Below are positions 14,423 through 29,333 of a stretch of DNA of 30,979 nucleotides, one piece after another. Origin of the DNA: a virus (lineage: Duplodnaviria; Heunggongvirae; Uroviricota; Caudoviricetes). Location of the stretch: IMG/VR virus record IMGVR_UViG_644736365_000004; one strand, written 5' to 3'. A program made the position numbers and the translations under genes. Position 1 is the first letter of the stretch, and every line of letters begins with the position of its first letter. The notes below the pieces were generated by a model. The model was not told the origin of the DNA, ran no database searches, and saw nothing but the letters and a program-made list of their open reading frames with translations.

Positions 14423-14875
14423 ATGTTTAGCGGAAAACCGCTGGATTATCAGGATGAACCGCTGACGAATAACGGGTTCTGGCCGGATCTGAATCTGAAG
14501 GACTTTCAGGCGCAGCGGTCACTGCCAGCCGATATTGACGCGGACACCATCAGTCAGGCGCTGCTGGCCGCTGTTGCAGAGGTGAATGCCGAGCTGGAAA
14601 ACGTGGAGGCCAGCTGGAAAGCAAAAGGCCACACGCTGGCAGCAGATGTTCCGGGCGTAAAAATGGGCGGGCTTAACAGTCTGTGTGCCCAGTACATGAA
14701 AGCGGTATTTGCCAGGGCAAAAGCGGATCTGCTGGGGGAGTTCGCCACTGTAGGGCGACGTGAAACCCATCCGGGACAGGAAAGTATGGAAACCCGCGCC
14801 GGGTTACTGGCTGAGGCTTCAGTGGTTATCCGCCGCATGAAGGGGCTTAAACGTGCAACGGTGAAAAAAGTATGA
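14423..14875 (+). CDS. head completion/stabilisation protein (P2 gpL-like)
   Basis: About 150 aa from the ATG at 14423 (RBS GGGGGAA). Sequence pattern resembles gpL as recalled (xxFxAxRSL, LLAAVAEVNxEL, W...G..L.D.P). Confidence 0.7.
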   Translation: MFSGKPLDYQDEPLTNNGFWPDLNLKDFQAQRSLPADIDADTISQALLAAVAEVNAELENVEASWKAKGHTLAADVPGVKMGGLNSLCAQYMKAVFARAKADLLGEFATVGRRETHPGQESMETRAGLLAEASVVIRRMKGLKRATVKKV

Positions 14876-15378
14876 GCCAGACGCAGCTTGAGAGCCTGAC
14901 TGCATTTTTTCAGCAAAACGTGCCGCCGCGCGCCATGCAGTCATTTGACAGTGTGCTGGATGAAATGAAGTTCATCCCCGCCGCGAAGGACTACGGGCTG
15001 GGACAGTACCGCCAGGCGGTGATTCGCTATGACGCGGTAATCAGCTGGCAGCGTTTCCCGTACCGCCTGTGTCCGCCGCAGTTGCTTATGTCGCTGCTGG
15101 CCGCGTGGCTGGATGAGGCTGACAGGGAATTACTGGATGAAGTCGGCCTGACTGAAGCTGAACCGGACTGGGATGTGTCAGTGGAGGATGAGGAAACCGC
15201 CACCATTGTACTGACAGTTCCAATGGCGGAAGAACTGGTGATCAGGGAGGACGAAAACGGGGCGATCCCGTGGCAGGGGAAACGCTGGTCACTGGTTAAC
15301 CCTGAGGTCTGGATAGCGATCACCGCCAATATTTATGGCGTGGATGAAACCGGTGCGCCGATAGGCGGTAACGAATGA
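14872..15378 (+). CDS. putative tail completion protein (gpR-like)
   Basis: 168-aa ORF translationally coupled to gpL (ATGA overlap). Assigned by position and weak resemblance to gpR. Confidence 0.4.
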   Translation: MSQTQLESLTAFFQQNVPPRAMQSFDSVLDEMKFIPAAKDYGLGQYRQAVIRYDAVISWQRFPYRLCPPQLLMSLLAAWLDEADRELLDEVGLTEAEPDWDVSVEDEETATIVLTVPMAEELVIREDENGAIPWQGKRWSLVNPEVWIAITANIYGVDETGAPIGGNE

Positions 15379-16082
15379 TTGCCGGTGGTGAGCTGAATAA
15401 AAAGCAGCTTGCAGAGTTGCGTAAATCACTGGCCAGCATGGAGCTGTCGCCCAAAAAGCGCCAGCGCCTTATCTGGAGGCTGGCCAAATACGGCGTGATT
15501 GCCGCCGCAAAACGGCACGTTCGCAATCAGGAAGCACCGGATGGTCAGAAGTGGCCGGGGCGTAAAACGAAGCGCAAAGGGAAGATGCTGCGGAACCTGC
15601 CAAAACTGCTGCATATCCGTGAAATGCCAGAAATTCAGGCGGTACGGATCTATTTGCAGGGTGGTGGCTACCGGAACGGGGAAACGCCGGTACCGGCCGG
15701 GACAGTCGGATATGCGCAACAAAACGGGATGCGCGTCAGTGTCAGCCGTCGCAGCCAGCCACGGAAGGTGGAGGCCGGAAAAATGGCCACGCCAGCCCAG
15801 GCCAAAAAACTGCGGGCGCTGGGGTACCGGGTACGCACCGGTAAACGCTGGAAAAAGCCCACGCTGGGCGAGTTAACCAAAACGATGCCATACAGCCGGG
15901 CGGGGCTACTGATTCGAAAACTCAGCGGTAAGGCGGTGAAAACCAGCTGGACAGTGGATGTTCCTGCCCGTGTTTTTCTGGGCATGAGTGACGATGAATT
16001 TGATAACGCGCTGGCGCGTCAGCTTCAGGCCATCGGCTTTGGCTGGGATGTTAAGGCGCAGGATATTAAGGGGAAAACATGA
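15375..16082 (+). CDS. putative virion morphogenesis / tail completion protein (gpS-like)
   Basis: 235-aa basic protein coupled to the upstream ORF (ATGA overlap). Assigned mainly by position. Confidence 0.4.
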   Translation: MIAGGELNKKQLAELRKSLASMELSPKKRQRLIWRLAKYGVIAAAKRHVRNQEAPDGQKWPGRKTKRKGKMLRNLPKLLHIREMPEIQAVRIYLQGGGYRNGETPVPAGTVGYAQQNGMRVSVSRRSQPRKVEAGKMATPAQAKKLRALGYRVRTGKRWKKPTLGELTKTMPYSRAGLLIRKLSGKAVKTSWTVDVPARVFLGMSDDEFDNALARQLQAIGFGWDVKAQDIKGKT

Positions 16083-17206
16083 CCTGGCCAAACGTGACCG
16101 TGAACCAGGTAAACCAGCTGCTGGGTGAAACCAATGAAGTGGAACGCACGCTGCTGTTTATCGGTACGGGTACCAAAAATGTGGGGAAAACGCTGGCGGT
16201 GAATGCCCAGAGTGATTTTGATGCACTGCTGGGAGAAGGGGAAAGCCCGCTGAAAAGCGATGTTCTGGCGGCGCTGGCAAACGCCGGTCAGAACTGGTGG
16301 GCATTTATTCATGTGCTGCCCGCAGATGCTGAGGACGATGCCTGGGTGAAAGCGGTCCTGGCCGCACAGGTGGTGTGTTCGGTGGAAGGGGTGGTGCTGT
16401 CCAGTGATGTGACGGCAAAAGCCCAGGTGAATCAGGCGGCGACGTTACGATCCACGCTGATTTCCAAATATGGGCGCTGGGTGTGGTTCATCCTGGCCGT
16501 GCAGGGAATGCAGGAAGAAGAAGCCCAGGCGGATTACCTGACCCGTGTGTCTGCTATTCAGGATGGTATTGCAGAGAAGGCGGTGCAACTGGTTCCGCGT
16601 CTGTGGGGAAATGAGCCGGGTGTGCTGGCTGGCCGTCTGTGCAGTCGTGCCGTGACTATCGCTGACAGTCCCGCCCGTGTGAAAACCGGGGCGCTGCTGA
16701 ATCTGGGCAGTAATGAAATGCCGGTTGATGGTACCGGGGCGGTGCTGGAACTGGCCACGCTTCAGGCGCTGGAAGCACAGCGCTTTAGTGTACCGATGTG
16801 GTACCCGGATTATGACGGTTTTTATTGGGCTGACGGGCGGACGCTGGATGTGGAAGGCGGCGATTACCAGTCGATTGAAACCCTGCGAGTTGCCGATAAA
16901 GCGGCGCGTCGTGTGCGTCTGCTGGCTATCAGCAAAATTGCGGATCGTTCACTGAACAGCACACCGGGCAGCATTGCTGCACACCAGACGCTGTTTGCAC
17001 GTCCACTGCGTGAAATGTCCACGGCGGCCAGTATCAATGGCGTGTCATTTCCGGGAGAAGTGAAGCCGCCCCAGGAAGGTGATGTGACCATTGTCTGGAA
17101 GAACAAAAAGACGGTGGATATTTATCTGGTGGTACGCACCTGGGAAGTTCCGCTGCAAATCACCATCAGTCTGTTACTGGATGCCAGTCTGGAGGGTGCT
17201 GCATGA
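16079..17206 (+). CDS. putative tail sheath-like structural protein
   Basis: 375-aa ORF coupled on both sides, immediately upstream of a ~150-aa tube-sized ORF. Positional inference only; not P2 FI-like by sequence. Confidence 0.35.
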   Translation: MTWPNVTVNQVNQLLGETNEVERTLLFIGTGTKNVGKTLAVNAQSDFDALLGEGESPLKSDVLAALANAGQNWWAFIHVLPADAEDDAWVKAVLAAQVVCSVEGVVLSSDVTAKAQVNQAATLRSTLISKYGRWVWFILAVQGMQEEEAQADYLTRVSAIQDGIAEKAVQLVPRLWGNEPGVLAGRLCSRAVTIADSPARVKTGALLNLGSNEMPVDGTGAVLELATLQALEAQRFSVPMWYPDYDGFYWADGRTLDVEGGDYQSIETLRVADKAARRVRLLAISKIADRSLNSTPGSIAAHQTLFARPLREMSTAASINGVSFPGEVKPPQEGDVTIVWKNKKTVDIYLVVRTWEVPLQITISLLLDASLEGAA

Positions 17207-17658
17207 GTAAACGTATTTCGGGTATGTCGTTTGATACCTATCTTGACGGCGATCTGATCCACATCGAGAAAATCACGCTCGATATCACGGATAACAGCGC
17301 CGCCGCCCAGACCCGTGGTGTGCCGGATGGTCATGTTGATGGCGATGTGGCCGCAGAGGGCGAAATTGAAGTCAGTTCCAAAGTGCTGGGTGTGCTGACG
17401 GCCAAAGCCCGCGCAGCAGGTTCGTGGCGTGGTATTCCGCCGCTGGATTTTCTTTTCTATGCCAAAGCGGGCAGCGAAGAAATGAAAGTGGAATCGTTCG
17501 GCAACAAACTCCAGCTGAGTAATCTGCTGGATATCGATCCAAAGGGCGGCGGTGTGGCGACGCACAAAATCAAATATTTTGTGACCAGTCCCAAGTTCGT
17601 GAACATCAACGGTGTGCCGTATCTGGAAGCGGAAGCCACGGAAAACCTGATCGGATAA
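17203..17658 (+). CDS. putative tail tube-like structural protein
   Basis: 151-aa ORF coupled to the sheath candidate. Positional inference only. Confidence 0.35.
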   Translation: MSKRISGMSFDTYLDGDLIHIEKITLDITDNSAAAQTRGVPDGHVDGDVAAEGEIEVSSKVLGVLTAKARAAGSWRGIPPLDFLFYAKAGSEEMKVESFGNKLQLSNLLDIDPKGGGVATHKIKYFVTSPKFVNINGVPYLEAEATENLIG

Positions 17659-19041: not shown

Positions 19042-19232
19042 CAAAGCGAGTCCATGATATTGAACGAAATGGACTCGAACAGTATTTAATTCTTCGCCGT
19101 CATTATTTACCACATGGTCAGGATTCCGTTGACGATATTGCCGCCGCTATATGGCTGGATAACCGTCACTGGGAATATACGGGAATAGCCGTGGCTAATG
19201 GCGTGGCTAAAGCATTTAAAGGCACTGAATGA
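18784..19232 (+). CDS. tail assembly chaperone, predicted -1 frameshift fusion product
   Basis: Zero-frame codons GTA AAA AAC TGA (19030-19041) contain the X XXY YYZ heptamer A AAA AAC at 19032-19038. The -1 frame is open for 64 codons from 19038 to TGA at 19230-19232, overlapping the tape-measure ATG at 19229. Confidence 0.45.
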
Positions 19233-21289
19233 AACAGTTAGATTTTACATTAAGCCTTATTGATAAATTGTCCCGCCCGTTAAAACAGGCGCAGGGCAAC
19301 GTAACGGGCTTTGCTGAAAAATCAAAAGAAGCCTTTATGCAGATTGGCGGCGGTGTTCTGGCGCTGACGGGTACAGGGATGGCCATTAAAGGTGCGCTGA
19401 TGCCCGCCATTGAAATGTATGACGCGCTGAATGATGCGGCCGCAAAAGGGATCGATGATTCTGCGCTTAAGGCTGTTCAGCGTGATGCGCTGCGCTTCAG
19501 TACAACCTACGGCGCCAGCGCAGTGGAGTTTGTACAGTCCACGGAAAGTATAAACGCCTCCATTGCCGGGCTGACCGGGAATGAGCTGCCGAAAGTGACG
19601 AAAGTCGCCAATACCCTGGCGTTTGCGCTCAAATCCACCGCAGCGGAAACCGCTGAGTTTATGGGGCAGATGTTCGGTAACTTTTCCGCCGATGCCAACC
19701 GGCTGGGAAAGGTTGAGTTTGCTGAACAGCTCGCCGGAAAAATGGTGTACATGCGCAAAACCTTTGGCACGGAAATGGCTGCTATCAAGGATTTGATGGA
19801 AGGGGCGCGCGGCGTGGGTACCAACTACGGCGTGGGGCTGGATGAACAGCTGGCCGTGCTGGGACAGCTTCAGCGGACACTGGGCACGGAAGCCAGCAGC
19901 GCTTATGAAGGCTTTATGACCGGAGCCATTGAGGGCGGTAAAAAGCTGGGGATGTCCTTCACGGATTCCACCGGCAAAATGTTGTCCATGCCTGAAATGC
20001 TGATCAAGTTACAGGGCAAGTATGGCAAAAGCCTGGAAGGGAATCTGAAAGCCCAGGCTGAACTGGATGCGGCATTTGGTGACAGTTCGGCTGTGGTGAA
20101 ACACCTTTATGGCAATGTGGCGCTGCTTCAGCGCAATATCACAGAGCTGGGCGGTGCTGATGGTCTGAAGCGTACCCAGGAAATGGCGCAGAAAATGGTG
20201 AAGCCGTGGGATCGCTTTGTCGCAATCCTGAAGGCTATCCAGACCGTAATCGGCCTGACGCTGATCCCGGTGCTTTATCCGGTTCTGAACCGCCTGGCCG
20301 ATATGGGGCAGACTTTTGCCCGCTGGATGCAGCTGTTTCCCAACATTGCGCGTGTTGTCGGGTATGCGGCAATGGCCTTACTCAGCTTTGCAGCTGTGGG
20401 GGCAGTCGCCAATATCGTGATGGGTGTCTCCAGATTCATCATGATGGGGTTGCGCGGGATCTGGGTGGCGCTGACGACCGTCACGAAAATCTACACCGCC
20501 ACTGTCTGGTTGGGGAACATTGCCGTGGTTGCCTGGAACGCCACGCTGAAATTTCTGCGCGGTACGTTGCTGGCGGTTCGTATGGCGGCAATGATGGCCG
20601 GGATAGGTATTAATCTGATGAGCTGGCCGATCCTGCTTGTGATTGGTGCCGTTGCCTTACTTGCTGCTGGTTGCTGGCTGCTGATTAAACACTGGGACAC
20701 GGTAAAGAACGCGGTCATGGATACCGCTGCATTTCAGGCATGCGCCAGGGTAGTGGCATGGCTTGCCGGGGTGTTTGCTTCAGCCTGGCAGTTTATCAGC
20801 GAAGGCTGGAACAGTTTTATTTCCATGCTGACCGGGTTTTCTCCTTCTCAGGCATTAAGCGGGCTGGCCACGGGCATTGTGTCATTGTTTGATAATGTCT
20901 GGCTGTCGGTTAAAAACGGCTTTCTGAAATCATGGAACTGGATTGTAAGTAAATTAAATAATATTCCGGGTGTCGATATTGAACTGGCGGGGGCTTCTTC
21001 AGCAGGTATCGCTAAAAATGAAACAGCGGTGTATCCGGTACCAGAGTTAAAACAATCCGCAAAAGCTGAAGGCGCACTTCCTGCGGTGACGCAAAATAGT
21101 TTCACCCCAGACAGGCTTTTAACCGGAGGTGAATTAAAAGACATTGAGAAGGGCGGAATTACCAAAACGATTAACAGTAATGCTAAGTCCTTGACCGACA
21201 ATAGCCGGAAAATTGACACAGTAAACATTTATCCGAAAGAAATGATTACACCCGGTCAGTTAATGGAATTTCAGGAGCTGGGCGCATGA
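19229..21289 (+). CDS. tail tape measure protein
   Basis: 686-aa Ala/Gly/Leu-rich ORF with internal hydrophobic segments, directly after the frameshifting chaperone. Confidence 0.7.
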   Translation: MKQLDFTLSLIDKLSRPLKQAQGNVTGFAEKSKEAFMQIGGGVLALTGTGMAIKGALMPAIEMYDALNDAAAKGIDDSALKAVQRDALRFSTTYGASAVEFVQSTESINASIAGLTGNELPKVTKVANTLAFALKSTAAETAEFMGQMFGNFSADANRLGKVEFAEQLAGKMVYMRKTFGTEMAAIKDLMEGARGVGTNYGVGLDEQLAVLGQLQRTLGTEASSAYEGFMTGAIEGGKKLGMSFTDSTGKMLSMPEMLIKLQGKYGKSLEGNLKAQAELDAAFGDSSAVVKHLYGNVALLQRNITELGGADGLKRTQEMAQKMVKPWDRFVAILKAIQTVIGLTLIPVLYPVLNRLADMGQTFARWMQLFPNIARVVGYAAMALLSFAAVGAVANIVMGVSRFIMMGLRGIWVALTTVTKIYTATVWLGNIAVVAWNATLKFLRGTLLAVRMAAMMAGIGINLMSWPILLVIGAVALLAAGCWLLIKHWDTVKNAVMDTAAFQACARVVAWLAGVFASAWQFISEGWNSFISMLTGFSPSQALSGLATGIVSLFDNVWLSVKNGFLKSWNWIVSKLNNIPGVDIELAGASSAGIAKNETAVYPVPELKQSAKAEGALPAVTQNSFTPDRLLTGGELKDIEKGGITKTINSNAKSLTDNSRKIDTVNIYPKEMITPGQLMEFQELGA

Positions 21290-21615
21290 GTGAGAGTCTT
21301 TATATTGATTTGCTTATTCAGGGCGGTGATTTTGTTCTGAATACCGGATATGAACCTGAACTGTGTAATAACCGTAAAAGTATCGGACAGGACATTATTC
21401 ATTCCATTATTGAAAGCGGGCTGGCAACGGAACTGATTGCCGAACGCAGCCCAACAATGCGGGCGGATATTTTTACCCGTATGGAATTACTGATTGAAGA
21501 TGATGAACGGATTATTCCGGGAACAGTGGAAATCAGTGAGGAAAGTCAGAAACGATTATGGATAACGGCCAGCACCTATGATTTTGGCGGCATTTCTGCG
21601 CAGGTGGATTTATGA
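21286..21615 (+). CDS. putative baseplate protein (gpW/gp25-like position)
   Basis: 109-aa ORF coupled between the tape measure and baseplate J genes. Size and position only. Confidence 0.35.
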   Translation: MSESLYIDLLIQGGDFVLNTGYEPELCNNRKSIGQDIIHSIIESGLATELIAERSPTMRADIFTRMELLIEDDERIIPGTVEISEESQKRLWITASTYDFGGISAQVDL

Positions 21616-22796
21616 CAGAAAAACCGCAGGTTGATTTTGAGGAAGTGGTGAAGGCCAGCGGGATGCCGGTGACGGAATCTGAAGTGCGGGATCGCTTTAA
21701 TGCGATTGCGGCTGAGGAAGGCATGATCACCAACACATCCCGCATGTCACCGTTCTGGCGGTTAGTCACGGCCATTGTGACTGCGCCGGTGATGTGGCTG
21801 AAAGAGGTTCTGGTATCCACGGTGCTGGCCAATATGTTTGTGGCCACGGCCAGCGGGAGCATGTTGCGTCTGCTGGCCTGGGCGGTGAACGTGACGGCGA
21901 AGCCCGCCAGCGCCGCGCAGGGTGTGATCCGCTTCTTTAAGGAAGATGCCAGAGCCGTTGTGACGGTGAAGGCCGGGACGGTTATCCAGACTGAACGCAT
22001 CAACGGCAGGGTGTACGAACTGGCGACCACCGGCGATGTGGTGATCCCTTCCGGCACGGCCAGCGCATTGCTGCCGGTGAAAGCCACCGGAACCGGGGGA
22101 GCCTATAACCTTGCACCAGGGTATTACCGCATTTTGCCTGTGGCCGTGGATGGTATCAGTCATGTGGCCAGCGAGGAAAACTGGCTGACGGTGCCGGGTG
22201 CCGATGAAGAAAGTGATGATGAACTGCGTGAACGTTGCCGCAACCAGTTCAACCTGGTGGGCAATTACCACACGGATGCGGTTTACCGTTCAATGATTGC
22301 CGGTGTTGCCGGGCTGAGTATTGACCGGATTTTCTTTGAGCATGAAGCGCCGAGGGGACCGGGTACCGCAAACGCCTATTTATTGTTGGATAGCGGGGTG
22401 GCTTCCGCGCCGTTTGTGAATGCGGTGAATGATTACATCAACACGCAGGGACACCACGGCCACGGCGACGATATGCAGTGTTACGCCATGCCGGAAACCC
22501 GTCACGATCTGGCCGTAACGGTGTACGTCAGAAATCTGGCCAACCTGACAGACGACGAACAGAACAGCCTGAAGGCCGGGATTGAAAACATGATCCGCTG
22601 TGCTTTTCGTGAAAACGCTGATTTTGACGTCAGAAAAACGTGGCCATATTCGCGGTTCTCGTTTTCTCAGTTGGGGCGGGAGATCCACAAAACCTTTGCG
22701 CTGGCGGATTCGCTGTCCTTTTCACTGGGAGACATTACCAGTGAGCTGAATGTGCCGCGCCTGAAGTCACTGGTAGTGAGTCTTGAGAATGAATGA
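21612..22796 (+). CDS. baseplate J-like protein
   Basis: 394-aa ORF coupled upstream of the gpI-like and tail fiber genes. Assigned by synteny with the W-J-I-H-G order. Confidence 0.5.
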   Translation: MTEKPQVDFEEVVKASGMPVTESEVRDRFNAIAAEEGMITNTSRMSPFWRLVTAIVTAPVMWLKEVLVSTVLANMFVATASGSMLRLLAWAVNVTAKPASAAQGVIRFFKEDARAVVTVKAGTVIQTERINGRVYELATTGDVVIPSGTASALLPVKATGTGGAYNLAPGYYRILPVAVDGISHVASEENWLTVPGADEESDDELRERCRNQFNLVGNYHTDAVYRSMIAGVAGLSIDRIFFEHEAPRGPGTANAYLLLDSGVASAPFVNAVNDYINTQGHHGHGDDMQCYAMPETRHDLAVTVYVRNLANLTDDEQNSLKAGIENMIRCAFRENADFDVRKTWPYSRFSFSQLGREIHKTFALADSLSFSLGDITSELNVPRLKSLVVSLENE

Positions 22797-23376
22797 GTTC
22801 ATGAAAAAGCTGGCCGGGATGGTGCTTCCCTCCTGGATGGATCAGGGGGAGCCGAACAAGCTGCTGAAAACAGCCCGGCGATTCTGGGCGGAGGTTTACG
22901 GCTGGATAACCTGGCCACTGAACCAGTTTGATCCGCTGACCTGCACACCGGCATTACTGAACCTGCTGGCGTATGACCGGGACATAACCCGCTTTGATGG
23001 TGAGCCATTGAGTCTGTTCCGCAAACGGGTGGCGTTTGCCTTCGTGAATGCGCGTGATGCCGGTTCCGTTGAGGGATTTATCAACATCTTTGAACGGCTG
23101 GGCATTGGATATGTGGAGCTGCGGGAGCGTCAGCCGGGTATTGACTGGGATGTGATCCTGGTACGTGTGACAGACAGCCAGATAGCGGACAACACGCAGT
23201 TGCTTATCCAGATAATCCGGCAGTACGGGCGAACATGCCGCCGTTATCAGTTTGAGGTGATCACATCGGAAAAAATGGCTATCAGAGCCGGATGGGATCA
23301 GGGGGAATATGTGGTTTATCCGGCTTCGTTAGCAGGGACGGAAACCCACAGCGCGACATTCAGCGCAGGTTTGTAA
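22789..23376 (+). CDS. baseplate/tail protein (gpI-like)
   Basis: About 195 aa. ATG at 22789 overlaps the J stop (ATGAATGA); the ATG at 22801 is an alternative start. Lies between J and the tail fiber. Confidence 0.45.
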   Translation: MNEFMKKLAGMVLPSWMDQGEPNKLLKTARRFWAEVYGWITWPLNQFDPLTCTPALLNLLAYDRDITRFDGEPLSLFRKRVAFAFVNARDAGSVEGFINIFERLGIGYVELRERQPGIDWDVILVRVTDSQIADNTQLLIQIIRQYGRTCRRYQFEVITSEKMAIRAGWDQGEYVVYPASLAGTETHSATFSAGL

Positions 23377-23386
23377 GGAGTTTTTT

Positions 23387-25435
23387 ATGTCACAGACAGC
23401 TATCACGCTGGCATTTGAGCACTGGAAAGCGCAGCAGGGTGCAACCGGCGAGCCGGTGTTACTGGATGAATTTGTGTTTGCGAATGTACCAGGACTAACC
23501 CCGGATACACCTGTTGATCGCAGTGAAGCAATGCCGCCTGTGGAGCAGATTGTGCACCGGCAGCCTGTTACCCGCACTGGCGTGGTGAATGAAAATGGCG
23601 TGGTGTATTCCGCCGTTCTAGGCGCTGATGTGGGTGATTTCAGTTTCAACTGGATTGGTCTGCTGAATAAGGCCAGCGGCACCCTGGCCATGATTGTTCA
23701 TGCGCCTGTGCAGCAAAAGCTGAAAACAGCGGAAGGGCAGCAGGGGAACGTGCTTACCCGTTCGTTTCTGATGGAGTACAACGGCGCACAGACCGAAACC
23801 GGGATTACTACACCGGCTGAGACTTGGCAGATTGACTTCACGGCGCGTATGGCCGGGATGGATGAGCGTCAGCGCCTGGAAAATGCGGATATTTACGGCG
23901 CTGCGGCATTCTTTGGCGATGGTTATCTGGTCGGTAAAACGGGCAATCAGTTCTTTGTCACCAAAGGCACCGGCTATGTGGCGGGACTGCGTACGTCACT
24001 GGCTGCAAATCAGAATATCACTGTGACGGTAAAGCCAGTCAAAGTCTGGCTGGATGTGTGCTGGACGGGAGCACTGACCAGTGTCTGGAATGTGCAGAAC
24101 AAAATCACCGTGGCGGAAAACCTGGCTGATTACGTGCAGAACGGTGTGCAGCATTACGTGTTTGCTGTGGCCAGTGTTGATGTAAATGGCAATATCACTG
24201 ATTTACGGCCTAAAGGGTCGCTAAATGAGCAGGTGGCCAGCGATGCGCTAAAAAAGCATGAGCAGTCCCGGAATCATCCTGATGCGACGACCAGCGCGAA
24301 GGGATTCACCCAGTTAAGCAGCGCGACAGACAGCGCCAGTGAAGAACTGGCCGCGACGTCGAAAGCGGTTAAAATCGCGATGGATAACGCCAACGCACGT
24401 CTTGCGAGAGACCGAAACGGTTCTGATATTCCTAATCCAGCCTTGTTTGTTCAAAACATTGGTTTGCAGAGTACTGTAAATAAAGCTGACGGTGCTATTC
24501 AGAGGTCCGGCGACAATATGGACGGACCGCTCGGTCTTAAACGAACATCCTCTTTTGGTGTGGGTACTGAGAACGCGCTCGGCGGAAACTCCATTGCCAT
24601 CGGTGACAACGATTCAGGGTTTAAGTCAAATGGTGACGGTAACATTGCGCTGATGGCAAATAGTGTTCTTGCCGGGTATTTTTCGGAAAATGAATTACAG
24701 CATCGGAAAAAAATGCTGACAAAAATTTTTCAGGCCATTGCAGAAAACAACTGGACGGAAGGTGCCGGAGGTTTTGGTTCGCAACTTGGAAGTGGCGCAC
24801 CTTTTATCAGTCCGCGAATAACCCGACCAAATGATGACAACAATTATTTCCCTTTCTGGAAGCAAATTGTCTCTCTTGTCTCTGGTTATCCCGTTGCCGC
24901 TTCAATGGGGTTAATGACGACAGGGAAAACAAACTTTCCGCAGATTGTTATTCATGCGAAAACGGATTTTGAGGTCAATGACAAGCTATGGGTGTTTGAT
25001 GTTGCAACCGGAGAGTTTCGCGCACCGGCTAAAATTACCGCCCGCGAAATTGAGCTTAGCAGCAATGGTGGCGTAGCCGCTGATGGCCAGTTACGTGGCT
25101 CTGCGTGGGGCGGGACGTTAAGTAACTATCTGGATAACAGGTTCAACCGAAAAAATACGGCAACACTAGGTTTTTCTGGCTGGAGTCGTGATGAATCAAC
25201 GGGGCTGATTATGCAGTGGGGAAATGTTGACAATGCCAGAGGAACCTATTCTTTCCCAAGAGCATTCAGTGATACTTGCTTTGCAGTATTTGCCTGTAAC
25301 AAAGACGGGCAACTCGGGGCAATAGACAACGCATATGGCTATCCGGTGAGTAAAACGCAGTTCTATCTCGCGAGTAAAGCGAACTCTGGCGCTGATACTG
25401 CATGCGGCATTTCATGGTTTGCACTGGGGTACTGA
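23387..25435 (+). CDS. tail fiber protein
   Basis: 682-aa ORF followed by a Tfa gene. Contains the collar motif [24 protein letters not shown] (coded ~24300-24390), shared by many tail fibers. C-terminal half is visibly more AT-rich. Confidence 0.8.
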
Positions 25436-25437
25436 TA

Positions 25438-25854
25438 ATGACTGAGCAATATTACTACAGCTATTCGGCGAAGGGCTTTTTCTGGCTGAGTGCAGATGAA
25501 CTTAAGGGAAAAGATATTCCCGCTGACCTGATACCCGTCAGCGAGGAAGATCACGCCGCACTGTTCCTCGGTCAGGAGCAGGGGAAATACATTAACCATA
25601 CTCCTGATGGACCCCTTCTGGTTGACCAGCCTGATTACTCGCCAGAAGAACTCATTGCACAGGCAGAAATCAAAAAGGAAAAACTTCTATCAGAGGCTGA
25701 AGTTGTCATAGCGCCACTGGCTCGGGCAGTAAAACTGAAAATTGCAACAGATGAAGAGATTGCATTGCTGGAAGCATGGGAACTCTACAGCGTTATGGTT
25801 AACCGTGTTGATACTTCAGATCCTGAATGGCCGGAGGTGCCTGATGTGGCGTGA
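25438..25854 (+). CDS. tail fiber assembly protein (Tfa)
   Basis: About 138 aa from the ATG at 25438 (track start 25402 overlaps the fiber). C-terminal region [55 protein letters not shown] matches the conserved Tfa signature. Confidence 0.85.
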
Positions 25855-26569
25855 AGCGCGTCTGGCTTTTACTGACTCACTGGCCGCGCTGAATTGTTCG
25901 GTCATTCCGGCGCATCCGTGGATAAACGGACTGGGGCAACAGACGGATAACGGCGCATATCTTAGCCCGGTGAATGCCGTCCGTTATCTTGCTGAAAGAC
26001 TGGCCGGAACAGGGGGGAATATCGATGTGATGATCATGATGGTGACTGGTCAGACGCATGAGAATTTTATGACCCGCCTCAACGGTCTGGTCGATGTTTT
26101 CCCGGCACCGGCATTCACGCAGGTAAAACGCCTGGCGCAATCCGCTGCGGCGCTGGCCATCGAAAAAATGCAGATCCCCGCCAAAGCTAGGGCGGGGTTG
26201 CCGGTTGCCATTCCGCTGTCAGTTCCAACCACCAGGGCGGCATTGTCTGCGGCGGCTGTCAGCCAGGCACAGAAAGCAGCCAGTGCGGGATTCAGCCTGG
26301 ACGGATTAAAGCAGCAAATGGGTGAGTTCGCGCAGCTGCGCGACAGCCTGATCAGTGATGTGGCCAGCGGGCTGAATGATTTGCAGGGGAAAAGCGCGAG
26401 GGCATGGGTGTTTACCAGCACCGGCGATACGGCCACCACGCTGCTGGAACTGGTAAAAGATATCCCGCAACCGTCAGCCGTCTATACCGCGGCGGTGATG
26501 CTGGTCGGTGACAATCTGGATGGAATAAAGGGAGTGATTCATGACTTCGATCCCAACGCTGGCGCTTAA
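25844..26569 (+). CDS. hypothetical late-operon protein
   Basis: About 241 aa from the ATG at 25844, overlapping the Tfa stop (ATGTGGCGTGA). GC content matches the phage. No recognisable motif. Confidence 0.4.
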
Positions 26570-27086
26570 TGGTGAAGCTATCCAGCTGAAAAACATGCGT
26601 GTGACCGTATCGCAGCAATTTCAGGATAAAGACCAGTCCGGCCAGACAAGCGCCACAACCAAATCAGAACAGGGGGCAAAAGGGAAAGAGCTGCGTATCA
26701 GTGGTGAAATTCCGTTTAAAAGCCCGGAGATCCTGAAGCGTATTTTTGAACTGGCCAGCGCCACGGATGCCGGAGGCAACCGCCAGAAATACCGCGTGGC
26801 ACATGAAGCGGCCAGAGCCGTGAATTTTCGCGAGGCGACATTCAGTGGAATGCTTGATGCCCCGCAGCAGGACGGGAAAATGGCCTGGCTGGTCACGTTC
26901 ACCCTGACAGAACATATCAGCGTGCAGGAAAAGCGGGAAGCCAGGGCAACAGGTAAAACGTCTGCCAAAAAACAGACGGCCGGTAATGCGGGACAATCTG
27001 GCGGTCAGAGTGCCGGGGAAGATGAAGAAAAACTGACGTGGTTTGAAAAACGGGTGCTGAAACCCGTCAATGATGCTTTGGGTTAA
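26541..27086 (+). CDS. hypothetical late-operon protein
   Basis: 181-aa ORF with strong RBS AAGGGAG. Overlaps the upstream ORF by 29 nt and the downstream ORF by 1 nt (TAATG). Low-complexity basic/Gln-rich C-terminal region. Confidence 0.4.
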   Translation: MTSIPTLALNGEAIQLKNMRVTVSQQFQDKDQSGQTSATTKSEQGAKGKELRISGEIPFKSPEILKRIFELASATDAGGNRQKYRVAHEAARAVNFREATFSGMLDAPQQDGKMAWLVTFTLTEHISVQEKREARATGKTSAKKQTAGNAGQSGGQSAGEDEEKLTWFEKRVLKPVNDALG

Positions 27087-28789
27087 TGATGAAACCAGTT
27101 AAACGCCTGTACCTTTCAACGGATGAAGTTCACCTGGCTGATGCCAGCCTGGTGCTGGAGCTGAACAGCTGCGGCCGGGGATTTATCACCGCACAGACTG
27201 ACGCGGATTACACCGGGAAACTGGTGCGACTGGATGTGGGATATTCCGATCTGCTTTTGCGATGGTTTACCGGCTACGTGGAACGCTCGCAACCAGCCGA
27301 AAACGGTTTTCAGCGTCTGTTTGTGCGCGAGCTGGTCGGCGTATTTGAAAGGATGTGGCCATGTTCATTTCAGCATCCCACTTTGCGCAAGATAGCCAGC
27401 TGGCTGGAGGAAAACAGCGGAATTGTTGTCAGTGTGCCGGATGCCCCCTACAGCGATATGCCGATCCCCCATTTCACCCATAACGGCACGGGTTATCAGT
27501 TGCTGAATAATCTGGGCAGAGCATTCAGTATTCAGGATTACATCTGGTACCAGTTGCCGGATGGTTCCCTGTATGTGGGCGGTGCGGAAAAAGCGATGTT
27601 TGCCGGTCGTCCGGTCGATATCCCGGCAGAGTTCAGCCAGGGTGCTGCTGGCGGTAATTCCATGACGCTGCCGGTGATCCAGAGTCTGCGGCCGGGAGTG
27701 GAGCTGAATGGGGAGCGTGTGACCAAAGTTCATCTGACCAATGACACAATGGCCGTCACCTGGACACCCAGAAACCGCGCAACAGGTCAGCCATTACAGA
27801 AAACACCTGCACAGCGCCAGATTGAGAGCCATTACCCGGAACTGGCTTCCGGGCTGCATCTGCCAAAACTGGCCAGAGTGGTGGCACCCAGTGAGGCTGT
27901 GAAAAGTGGTAATTTTGCCGATCCGTTCCGGCCGCGCTATGCCGTTGATGTGCAGCTGCTTGATGCAGATGGCAACCCGGACAACCAGACACCGGTTTAT
28001 TCTGCGGTGCCGCTGCCGGTACCTATGGCCGGGAATGACTCTGGCATGTTCCAGTTCCCGCCAGAAGGGACGCTGGTTGAAGTGGCATTTACCGGAGGTC
28101 GCCCGGATAAACCGTTTATCAGGCAGACACTGCCGGATGGTACCAGCCTGCCGGATGTTAAACCCGGTGAGCAGCTGCAACAGCAGCGGGCGGAAGTGTC
28201 GCAACGCGTTACCCAGGCTGGCGACTGGGTGAGGCAGACCGATCAGACCATCAGCGAAACATCGATGGCGCGGACGATCAAAGCCGATACGGAACAGCGC
28301 GAGCTGGTCAGCCGTGAAACAACGGTTAAAGCTACGGATAAGACCACGGTTCTGGGTACCTCCACCCTGATGGCCGGAGCCATCCAGCAGGTCAGTGCCG
28401 GTGATTATAGCCAGGCCGTGAAATGCAACAGGCTGGCCAGCATTGAGGGGAATGACGAAGCCGATATAACTGGCAAACAATCCACGAAAGTGGCCGGTGC
28501 CGTGGATGTTGATGTGGGGGGAGTCCTGACAGAAAAGATTGCCGCATTGCGTAAATCGGTGGCGGCGGGCGGCCAGCAGATTATGGGGCCAACCGTCCAT
28601 ATTGGCAGTGAGAGCGTCAACACCCTGACCATGATGCTGGACACCATTGATTTGCTGGCAGAGCTGGCGCGGCAATGTGCGAGCCATTCACACCCCAGCG
28701 TTGGTACGCCAACCAATGCCGAAGCATTTACCCAGACAGCAGAGAAGGCCGGACAGACCCGGAGTAAGTACCAGAAAATAATCGCCTGA
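27086..28789 (+). CDS. putative baseplate hub-spike protein (VgrG-like, gpD/gpV-type fusion)
   Basis: 567-aa last gene of the late operon. Internal motif GTLVEVAFTGGRPDKPFI resembles the gp5/gpV/VgrG OB-fold signature (VxVxFxxGDxxxPxI), followed by ~220 aa of Gly/Thr/Val-rich sequence. Confidence 0.5.
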   Translation: MMKPVKRLYLSTDEVHLADASLVLELNSCGRGFITAQTDADYTGKLVRLDVGYSDLLLRWFTGYVERSQPAENGFQRLFVRELVGVFERMWPCSFQHPTLRKIASWLEENSGIVVSVPDAPYSDMPIPHFTHNGTGYQLLNNLGRAFSIQDYIWYQLPDGSLYVGGAEKAMFAGRPVDIPAEFSQGAAGGNSMTLPVIQSLRPGVELNGERVTKVHLTNDTMAVTWTPRNRATGQPLQKTPAQRQIESHYPELASGLHLPKLARVVAPSEAVKSGNFADPFRPRYAVDVQLLDADGNPDNQTPVYSAVPLPVPMAGNDSGMFQFPPEGTLVEVAFTGGRPDKPFIRQTLPDGTSLPDVKPGEQLQQQRAEVSQRVTQAGDWVRQTDQTISETSMARTIKADTEQRELVSRETTVKATDKTTVLGTSTLMAGAIQQVSAGDYSQAVKCNRLASIEGNDEADITGKQSTKVAGAVDVDVGGVLTEKIAALRKSVAAGGQQIMGPTVHIGSESVNTLTMMLDTIDLLAELARQCASHSHPSVGTPTNAEAFTQTAEKAGQTRSKYQKIIA

Positions 28790-28800
28790 TCATCCCATTA

Positions 28801-28825
28801 GCCCGCGCGTAATGCGGGTTTTTTT
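28801..28825 (+). terminator. Rho-independent terminator ending the late operon
   Basis: Stem CCCGC (28802-28806) / GCGGG (28814-28818) with a 7-nt loop, followed by a run of 7 T (28819-28825), 12 nt after the hub-spike stop. Confidence 0.6.
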
Positions 28826-29333
28826 GTACCCATTCCCAGACCTCACCAGACGCATTCTAAGCGCTTCTTTTATCTGACCACTACCGCGCAACACCACAAA
28901 AGGATCTGTGCTGTCACGTTACGCTGACGGCGTTACACGCTGACGAAATAAATCTTTCGCAGACAAAAACGGCACTACACCGCACCCGCCTGCGGTTTCT
29001 GGATCGATAAAATTTTTCATTTTTCTTTTTCTTCAAACAACCAACCCAGACAGCGCCATTACTGGGGGATTAGCGGCTAACGTGAACTGAAAAGATTGAA
29101 AAGAATTTCAGTATTTTTCAGTGGAAAGGATCGATGGCGGGAATGATGAAATTACTAACATGTTGATATTTAATTAGTAATTTAGTTTTATGCGGGAGGG
29201 GGAGGATCCTTTCGTGCTGAATGGTTCTGAGAACATAAAGCCCGTGAAGATAGGAACTACGCGGGCTGTACATACTTTGTGTGTGATTTCAAAACTGAAA
29301 TTTATCAGCTGTGGCATCAGCAACTAGTTTTAA

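Follow-up and report, generated by a model that had tools for sequence, protein, structure and literature searches.

In phage P2, gpU is a tube initiator that is present in six copies on the gpD trimer, with a C-terminal helix that touches the wedge/triplex (P2 cryo-EM preprint). More distant comparators among tube initiators are T4 gp48/gp54, the N-terminal domain of Mu gp43 and Pam3 gp17, and many initiators of extracellular contractile injection systems carry a fused LysM domain. PA0626 of pyocin R2 (the 'ripcord', 285 aa), which we take to be a gpU homologue (literature including Nakayama et al. 2000), has a long helical ripcord domain. The small, low-copy baseplate proteins P2 gpX (67 aa) and T4 gp53 form the class of LysM 'glue', and in R2 pyocin the corresponding gene adjoins the initiator and hub genes. 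In HP1, two genes, orf33 and orf34, lie directly ahead of the hub-spike gene; to our knowledge, no member of the orf34 family (PF25759) has been characterised experimentally, and we know of no orf33-family member with a known function, a Pfam family or a solved structure. The map position after the tail fibre assembly gene is filled in P2 by Z/fun, a non-essential gene on the opposite strand, between the V operon terminator and the F operon promoter, whose phenotype in the lysogen is a block of T5 growth (P2 annotation).

The DNA analysed here (the window, 30,979 nucleotides) is an E. coli prophage of the HP1/ESSI-2 type (Peduoviridae). The region of interest shares 99.7% identity with a prophage of E. 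coli (JNE25-001), in which PGAP calls the identical three CDSs. Its gene order is that of HP1 orf31–orf35, with the sheath, tube and tape measure genes first and the gpU and gpD equivalents after Tfa (Table 1); the P2 correspondence of the upstream baseplate genes is as tabulated in Table S1 of PMC10612066. A sequence-only reading had singled out two open reading frames at 25844–27086, encoding 241 and 181 aa (ORF1 and ORF2 here), and both proved to be real when the sequence and the list of open reading frames were checked.

Table 1 Coordinates of the features discussed in the text (positions in the window).
Feature	Position	Strand	Evidence or remark
gpR homologue (terminator/completion)	14872–15378		PF06891, E 2.8e-25
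gpS-like protein (terminator/completion)	15375–16082		PF05069
Major tube protein	17203–17658		Beside sheath gene; PF10772 Phage_HP1_Orf24, E 6.3e-62
Tape measure	19229–21289	+	Pfam/PHROG matches; PGAP annotation of near-identical prophage
DUF2590 gpW-like sheath initiator	21286–21615	+	Pfam/PHROG; PGAP
gpJ	21612–22796	+	Pfam/PHROG; PGAP
gpI	22789–23376	+	Pfam/PHROG; PGAP
Tail fibre	23387–25435	+	Pfam/PHROG; PGAP
Tfa (tail fibre assembly, gpG-like)	25438–25854	+	Pfam PF02413, E 3.9e-23; PGAP CDS in JNE25-001
ORF1, 241 aa, HP1 orf33/K139 orf37/ACA1 gp46 family	25844–26569	+	phrog_1677, E 8e-75
ORF1 most conserved motif, aa 24–45, H-P-W-x-x-G ... Y-L-S-P-x-N-A	25913–25978	+	
ORF1 central Ala/Gln-rich predicted-helical segment, aa 104–177	26153–26374	+	Low-confidence model; most variable part of the family
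ORF2, 181 aa, HP1 orf34 family	26541–27086	+	PF25759, E 6.5e-55; phrog_1398, E 8.4e-74
ORF2 C-terminal helix, aa 162–181, EEKLTWFEKRVLKPVNDALG	27024–27083	+	Disordered linker aa 138–161 tethers helix to core
ORF3, 567 aa, fused hub-spike, HP1 orf35 equivalent	27086–28789	+	phrog_2258 'baseplate protein', E 5.5e-277
Intrinsic terminator, ends late tail operon	28800–28830	+	8-bp stem (5 G-C pairs), then TTTTTTG

The genes of this region are tightly joined. All lie on the same strand, and Tfa and ORF1 overlap by 11 nt, ORF1 and ORF2 by 29 nt and ORF2 and ORF3 by 1 nt (TAATG), which bears out the proposed coupling to the neighbours. The ORF1 ATG at 25844 is preceded at a distance of 6 nt by GGAGG (25833–25837) and lies ahead of the Tfa stop codon (25852–25854), while the ORF2 ATG at 26541 has GGGAG ahead of it. 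The GC content of 0.51–0.59 across the region is that of the late genes, as the same reading had observed, compared with 0.33–0.41 at 29–30.5 kb. The first strong terminator lies directly 3' of ORF3, at a position equivalent to that of the annotated terminator T39 of K139, and the interval from Tfa to ORF3 contained none comparable to it. A search for TGT-N12-ACA, the late promoter motif of the Ogr type, gave three matches in the window, which is below chance expectation, and none of the matches is near the region. Variable low-GC cargo is located downstream of the terminator at 28.8 kb, beyond the hub-spike gene. Tfa itself is part of an exchangeable fibre-tip/Tfa cassette that forms the upstream boundary of the ORF1/ORF2 pair: among related loci its identity ranges from no match up to 78%, whereas the flanking genes hold 85–99%.

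ORF2, which had been regarded as unassignable, matched the Pfam family PF25759 ('HP1 ORF34 baseplate complex protein') with 186 bits (cut-off 27), residues 6–181 aligning to positions 2–176 of the 180-position profile. Over the core, its identity to HP1 orf34 is 46%, and it occupies the same place directly before the hub-spike gene. Nothing essential sets it apart from the rest of the family, apart from the enteric C-terminal helix motif LKPVNDALG, which is missing in K139, C5a and ACA2. A gene of the orf34 family lies directly 5' of the hub gene in the window, HP1, ESSI-2, K139, phiO18P, phi3, ACA2, PV94, yong1, SMHB1 and C5a, and likewise in 160 of 160 IMG/VR loci (80/80 enteric-type and 80/80 PV94-type). 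In the AlphaFold2 model, the core of ORF2 (pLDDT >90) is predicted to adopt a tail-tube (Hcp/gp19-like) fold. The major tube protein is a different gene product, encoded beside the sheath gene. ORF2 contains neither a ripcord domain like that of PA0626 nor a fused LysM domain.

The model places a helix at residues 167–180 of ORF2, after a linker with pLDDT <50. Residues W167, F168, E169, K174, P175 and N177 are invariant in 96 sequences, and a motif L-K-x-[VL]-D-[DE]-x-L is common to ORF2, phiO18P, phi3, HP1, PV94, yong1 and SMHB1 and missing in K139, C5a and ACA2. Since the C-terminal helix of P2 gpU touches the wedge, this helix is, by analogy, a candidate for such a contact. The likeness to gpU extends to gene position immediately before the hub gene, to size (181 versus 159 aa) and to a C-terminal helix that follows a tube-fold core, but sequence similarity between the two proteins is undetectable. 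ORF2 had no match to the gpU family PF06995 at E ≤ 0.1, and comparison of ORF2 family profiles with P2 gpU by hhalign gave probabilities of 0.2–0.3%; an attempt to build a gpU profile from IMG/VR yielded only 98–100% identical copies. An HHpred link between the orf34 family and gpU (PF06995) has been published but marked as uncertain (PMC10612066). Because of the missing PF06995 match, the negative hhalign result and the uncertainty of the published match, we describe ORF2 as gpU-like in its working, not as a member of the gpU family. The ORF2 homologue of ACA1, gp47, went undetected by mass spectrometry of virions (PMC10612066).

ORF3 combines a gpD/gp27-like hub (aa ~7–226) with a gpV/gp5-like spike that consists of an OB domain and a β-helix (aa ~243–508), and a PDB search matched the spike end to the β-helix of T4 gp5 (E 2e-8). 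In PV94, the same parts are separate proteins: residues 7–226 of ORF3 are 32% identical to the hub protein gp46 (E 2e-45), and residues 243–477 are 34% identical to the spike gp47 (E 6e-38). The fusion of gpD and gpV in HP1 has been pointed out previously (PMC10612066).

ORF1 belongs to a single family, PHROG 1677 of unknown function, whose match covers residues 15–227, and it matched no Pfam or NCBIfam family; for this protein, the view that it could not be assigned stands. A profile of the ORF1 family (A1) recovered HP1 orf33 (E 1e-113), K139 orf37 (7e-33) and phiO18_44 (8e-17), together with an unannotated open reading frame of phi3 (1e-9) and ACA2 gp46 (9e-8; hhalign probability 92.8%, E 4e-7). 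In tblastn and HMM searches, the homologues in HP1, K139, phiO18P, phi3 and ACA2 each lie immediately 5' of orf34. The orf33 proteins of HP1, HP2 and F108 are 23–26% identical to ORF1 across 87% of its length, and the K139/phiO18P/phi3-type proteins (~295 aa) carry an N-terminal extension of ~65 residues that the enteric 241-aa proteins lack. An exhaustive ORF1 profile search of 1.84 billion representatives returned only 260 clusters and no tie to a known family; among the matches listed, the members range from 54 to 323 aa, many being fragments, and ten distant ones that were sampled contain no Pfam domain.

Within ORF1, residues H24, W26, G29, Y39, L40, P42, N44 and A45 are invariant in 112 sequences that include the Pasteurellaceae orf33 proteins. 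The motif that they define (aa 24–45), which served as the pattern in the IMG/VR search for related loci, was also seen in an alignment of 14 genera (A4). AlphaFold2 predicted a larger α/β domain with a helical insert (mean pLDDT 60.8), in which the flanking α/β core scored 72–84 and residues 104–136 and 142–177 scored <50; the segment at aa 104–177 aligns poorly between genera. Searches of the PDB with single sequences and family profiles returned nothing for ORF1 or ORF2, a PDB sequence search for an HP1-type baseplate structure found none, and no credible structural match of ORF1 to any component of the solved baseplates was obtained. At E ≤ 1e-3, 280 protein clusters matched ORF1 and 276 matched ORF2, a relative of ORF1 is encoded in 416 IMG/VR loci, and the median dN/dS was 0.084 for ORF1 and 0.078 for ORF2, with values of 0.073–0.102 for gpJ, gpI and ORF3. 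ORF1 and ORF2 are thus under strong purifying selection comparable to that on gpJ, gpI and the hub, and the cluster matches, the number of loci and the low dN/dS show that they are not chance reading frames.

The distribution of ORF1 differs sharply between lineages. It was found, with unchanged overlaps, in 80 of 80 enteric-type IMG/VR loci, including those in which a different fibre tip and Tfa have been swapped in, whereas orf33 was found in none of the 80 PV94-type loci, all of which contain orf34. The family is missing from PV94, yong1, SMHB1 and C5a, which keep the gpW, gpJ, gpI, orf34 and hub set at equal protein sizes. ORF1 is therefore outside the universal core of HP1-type baseplates and cannot be an indispensable architectural element. 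Among distant HP1-type genera, the space between the fibre gene and orf34 is empty or holds Tfa alone, Tfa with orf33, or a diversity-generating retroelement cassette with orf33, and in ACA1/2 orf33 still adjoins orf34 and the hub gene despite the retroelement cassette inserted beside the fibre gene. Variability of this slot, which the sequence-only reading had raised, hence holds over deep evolution, in which its content differs and ORF1 is absent from whole lineages, but not among the close relatives, where it is fixed in 80 of 80.

The pairwise identity of ORF1 followed that of gpJ, gpI, ORF2 and ORF3 closely (rho 0.90–0.91), compared with a rho of 0.47 for the fibre-tip/Tfa cassette, and 60 pairs of loci retained at least 97% identity in ORF1 with a cassette similarity below 30%. 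This lack of co-variation was one ground for rejecting a partnership of ORF1 with the fibre or with Tfa. The others are that the N-terminal fibre domain PF12571 is common to all lineages, with or without orf33, that SMHB1 has a small gene between fibre and orf34 (no Pfam match, Tfa-like by eye) and no orf33, and that the ACA phages have orf33 and no Tfa.

The evidence for an ORF1 homologue in virions comes from one paper (PMC10612066). ACA1 gp46 was detected in purified virions with two spectra and 6% coverage (Table S2 of that paper), which corresponds to 0.09 spectral counts per kDa, as compared with 0.08 for gpW, 0.05 for gpJ and 0.06 for gpV, and the preparation contained zero detected non-structural proteins. 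ACA1 gp46 is 100% identical to ACA2 gp46, and the ACA protein has ~19% identity with the ORF1 family profile. In the literature on HP1, K139, phiO18P, CFP3, SMHB1 and YenM_324, the ACA1 data set was the only virion proteomics or mutant data found.

Taken together, these results favour, with a probability of about 0.65, a reading in which ORF1 and ORF2 are distal late tail operon genes that encode components of the tail tip and not cargo, with ORF2 as the tube initiator and ORF1 as a low-copy accessory protein. By analogy with P2 gpU, the tube-fold protein ORF2 would form a hexameric ring atop the trimeric ORF3 hub and provide a template on which the tube protein assembles its first ring around the tape measure, while the conserved C-terminal helix on its flexible linker would probably reach the gpJ/gpI wedge. 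ORF1, made together with the hub module, would be associated with the baseplate, either as a peripheral structural subunit or as an assembly factor retained in small numbers. Given its fixation in the enteric loci, its co-divergence with the core, the detection of its homologue in ACA1 virions and its absence from sister lineages, ORF1 is in all likelihood an accessory protein of the baseplate or of its assembly that is confined to certain lineages. Of the earlier suggestion that the pair might be baseplate or terminator components, the baseplate part is borne out by the predicted tube fold of ORF2 and the ORF1-family protein in ACA1 virions, but the terminator part is not: the gpR and gpS homologues fill that role, and ORF1 and ORF2 match neither PF06891 nor PF05069.

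The alternative that survives best, although we consider it unlikely, is that ORF1 is not a true subunit but a morphogenetic chaperone or assembly catalyst for the fused hub-spike, for the hub/tube-initiator/tape-measure complex or for fibre attachment, in the manner of those T4 factors for hub assembly that the finished particle lacks or contains at sub-stoichiometric levels; the reading of ORF2 as tube initiator would be unaffected. Two observations fit a chaperone: tails are made from the same core parts in whole HP1-type lineages that have no orf33, and ORF1 has no structural match among solved baseplate components. The occurrence of orf33 in five of five genomes with a fused hub-spike (the window, ESSI-2, HP1, K139 and phiO18P), together with the split hub and spike genes of all four phages without orf33, points in the same direction, but ACA1/2 and phi3 keep orf33 despite split genes, and on these exceptions a tie of ORF1 to the fusion was rejected. 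The ACA1 signal can be read either way: it amounts to just two spectra, yet gp46 was at a level typical of baseplate proteins in a preparation free of detected non-structural proteins. The lack of co-variation with the fibre tip and with Tfa means that ORF1 does not act as a chaperone of the receptor-binding domain. The data would also fit a chaperone that is carried along adventitiously.

It is improbable that ORF1 replaces the LysM 'glue' of the P2 gpX and T4 gp53 class by bridging the hub/tube-initiator complex and the six wedges. gpX is the one core part of the P2 baseplate without a counterpart in HP1-type genomes: no gpX/LysM gene was found in the window, in ten HP1-type late regions or anywhere in the near-identical prophage as annotated by PGAP, and none is in Table S1 of PMC10612066. 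The abundance of gp46 in ACA1 virions is, moreover, compatible with ~6 copies, and ORF1 would resemble the glue class as a small low-copy baseplate protein, whose gene in R2 pyocin lies beside the initiator and hub genes. However, at 241 aa ORF1 is far longer than gpX, is dispensable in sister lineages and has no LysM fold or sequence (no LysM Pfam match; hhalign probability of 0.5% against gpX). The glue role is largely rejected by the PV94-type phages, which have neither protein and whose wedge, initiator and hub proteins show no compensating increase in size, so that the HP1-type baseplate needs no such glue.

The proposal that ORF1, ORF2 or both are cargo genes (morons) for defence, exclusion or lysogenic conversion in a slot like that of P2 Z/fun is close to refuted: beyond the ORF2 family match, no Pfam domain of recognised enzymatic or structural kind is present in either protein, the content ahead of orf34 varies among distant genera and some lineages lack ORF1, but the pair shares with Z/fun only the map position after the tail fibre assembly gene, being co-directional with the late operon, overlapping it without a promoter or terminator of its own, at late-gene GC, present in 80 of 80 close relatives, co-diverging with the baseplate core and unmatched by PADLOC defence-system models, with a predicted tube fold in ORF2, a virion homologue of ORF1 and the true variable low-GC cargo past the terminator. 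The window being of HP1/ESSI-2 type, the Z/fun analogy does not apply, and the operon boundary that defines the P2 slot does not exist here.

These findings hold limited biological surprise, but they indicate that what follows Tfa in prophages of the HP1/ESSI-2 type is the module of tube initiator and hub rather than a slot for cargo, and that defence genes and morons should be sought past the terminator that follows the hub-spike gene. They also correct the names 'adenine glycosylase', 'nucleoid DNA-binding protein' and 'tail-collar fiber protein', which several public records give to orf34-family proteins. The LysM glue of P2 is apparently missing from HP1-type tails, which contain the extra virion protein orf33 only in some lineages, and because the HP1-type baseplate is unsolved, orf33 offers a defined object for structural study. 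Tentatively, and with the odds against it, the orf33 family may be a new structural module that was added to a minimal HP1-type baseplate in some lineages, namely a virion protein of low copy number that combines an α/β core with a helical hairpin and resembles no component of the solved contractile-tail baseplates; such a module might alter the way in which hub, tube initiator and wedges are held together or triggered, or might be ejected along with the spike. If this is true, the sister phages that have otherwise identical parts without orf33 would provide a natural with/without comparison of how an accessory subunit tunes a minimal contractile injection machine.

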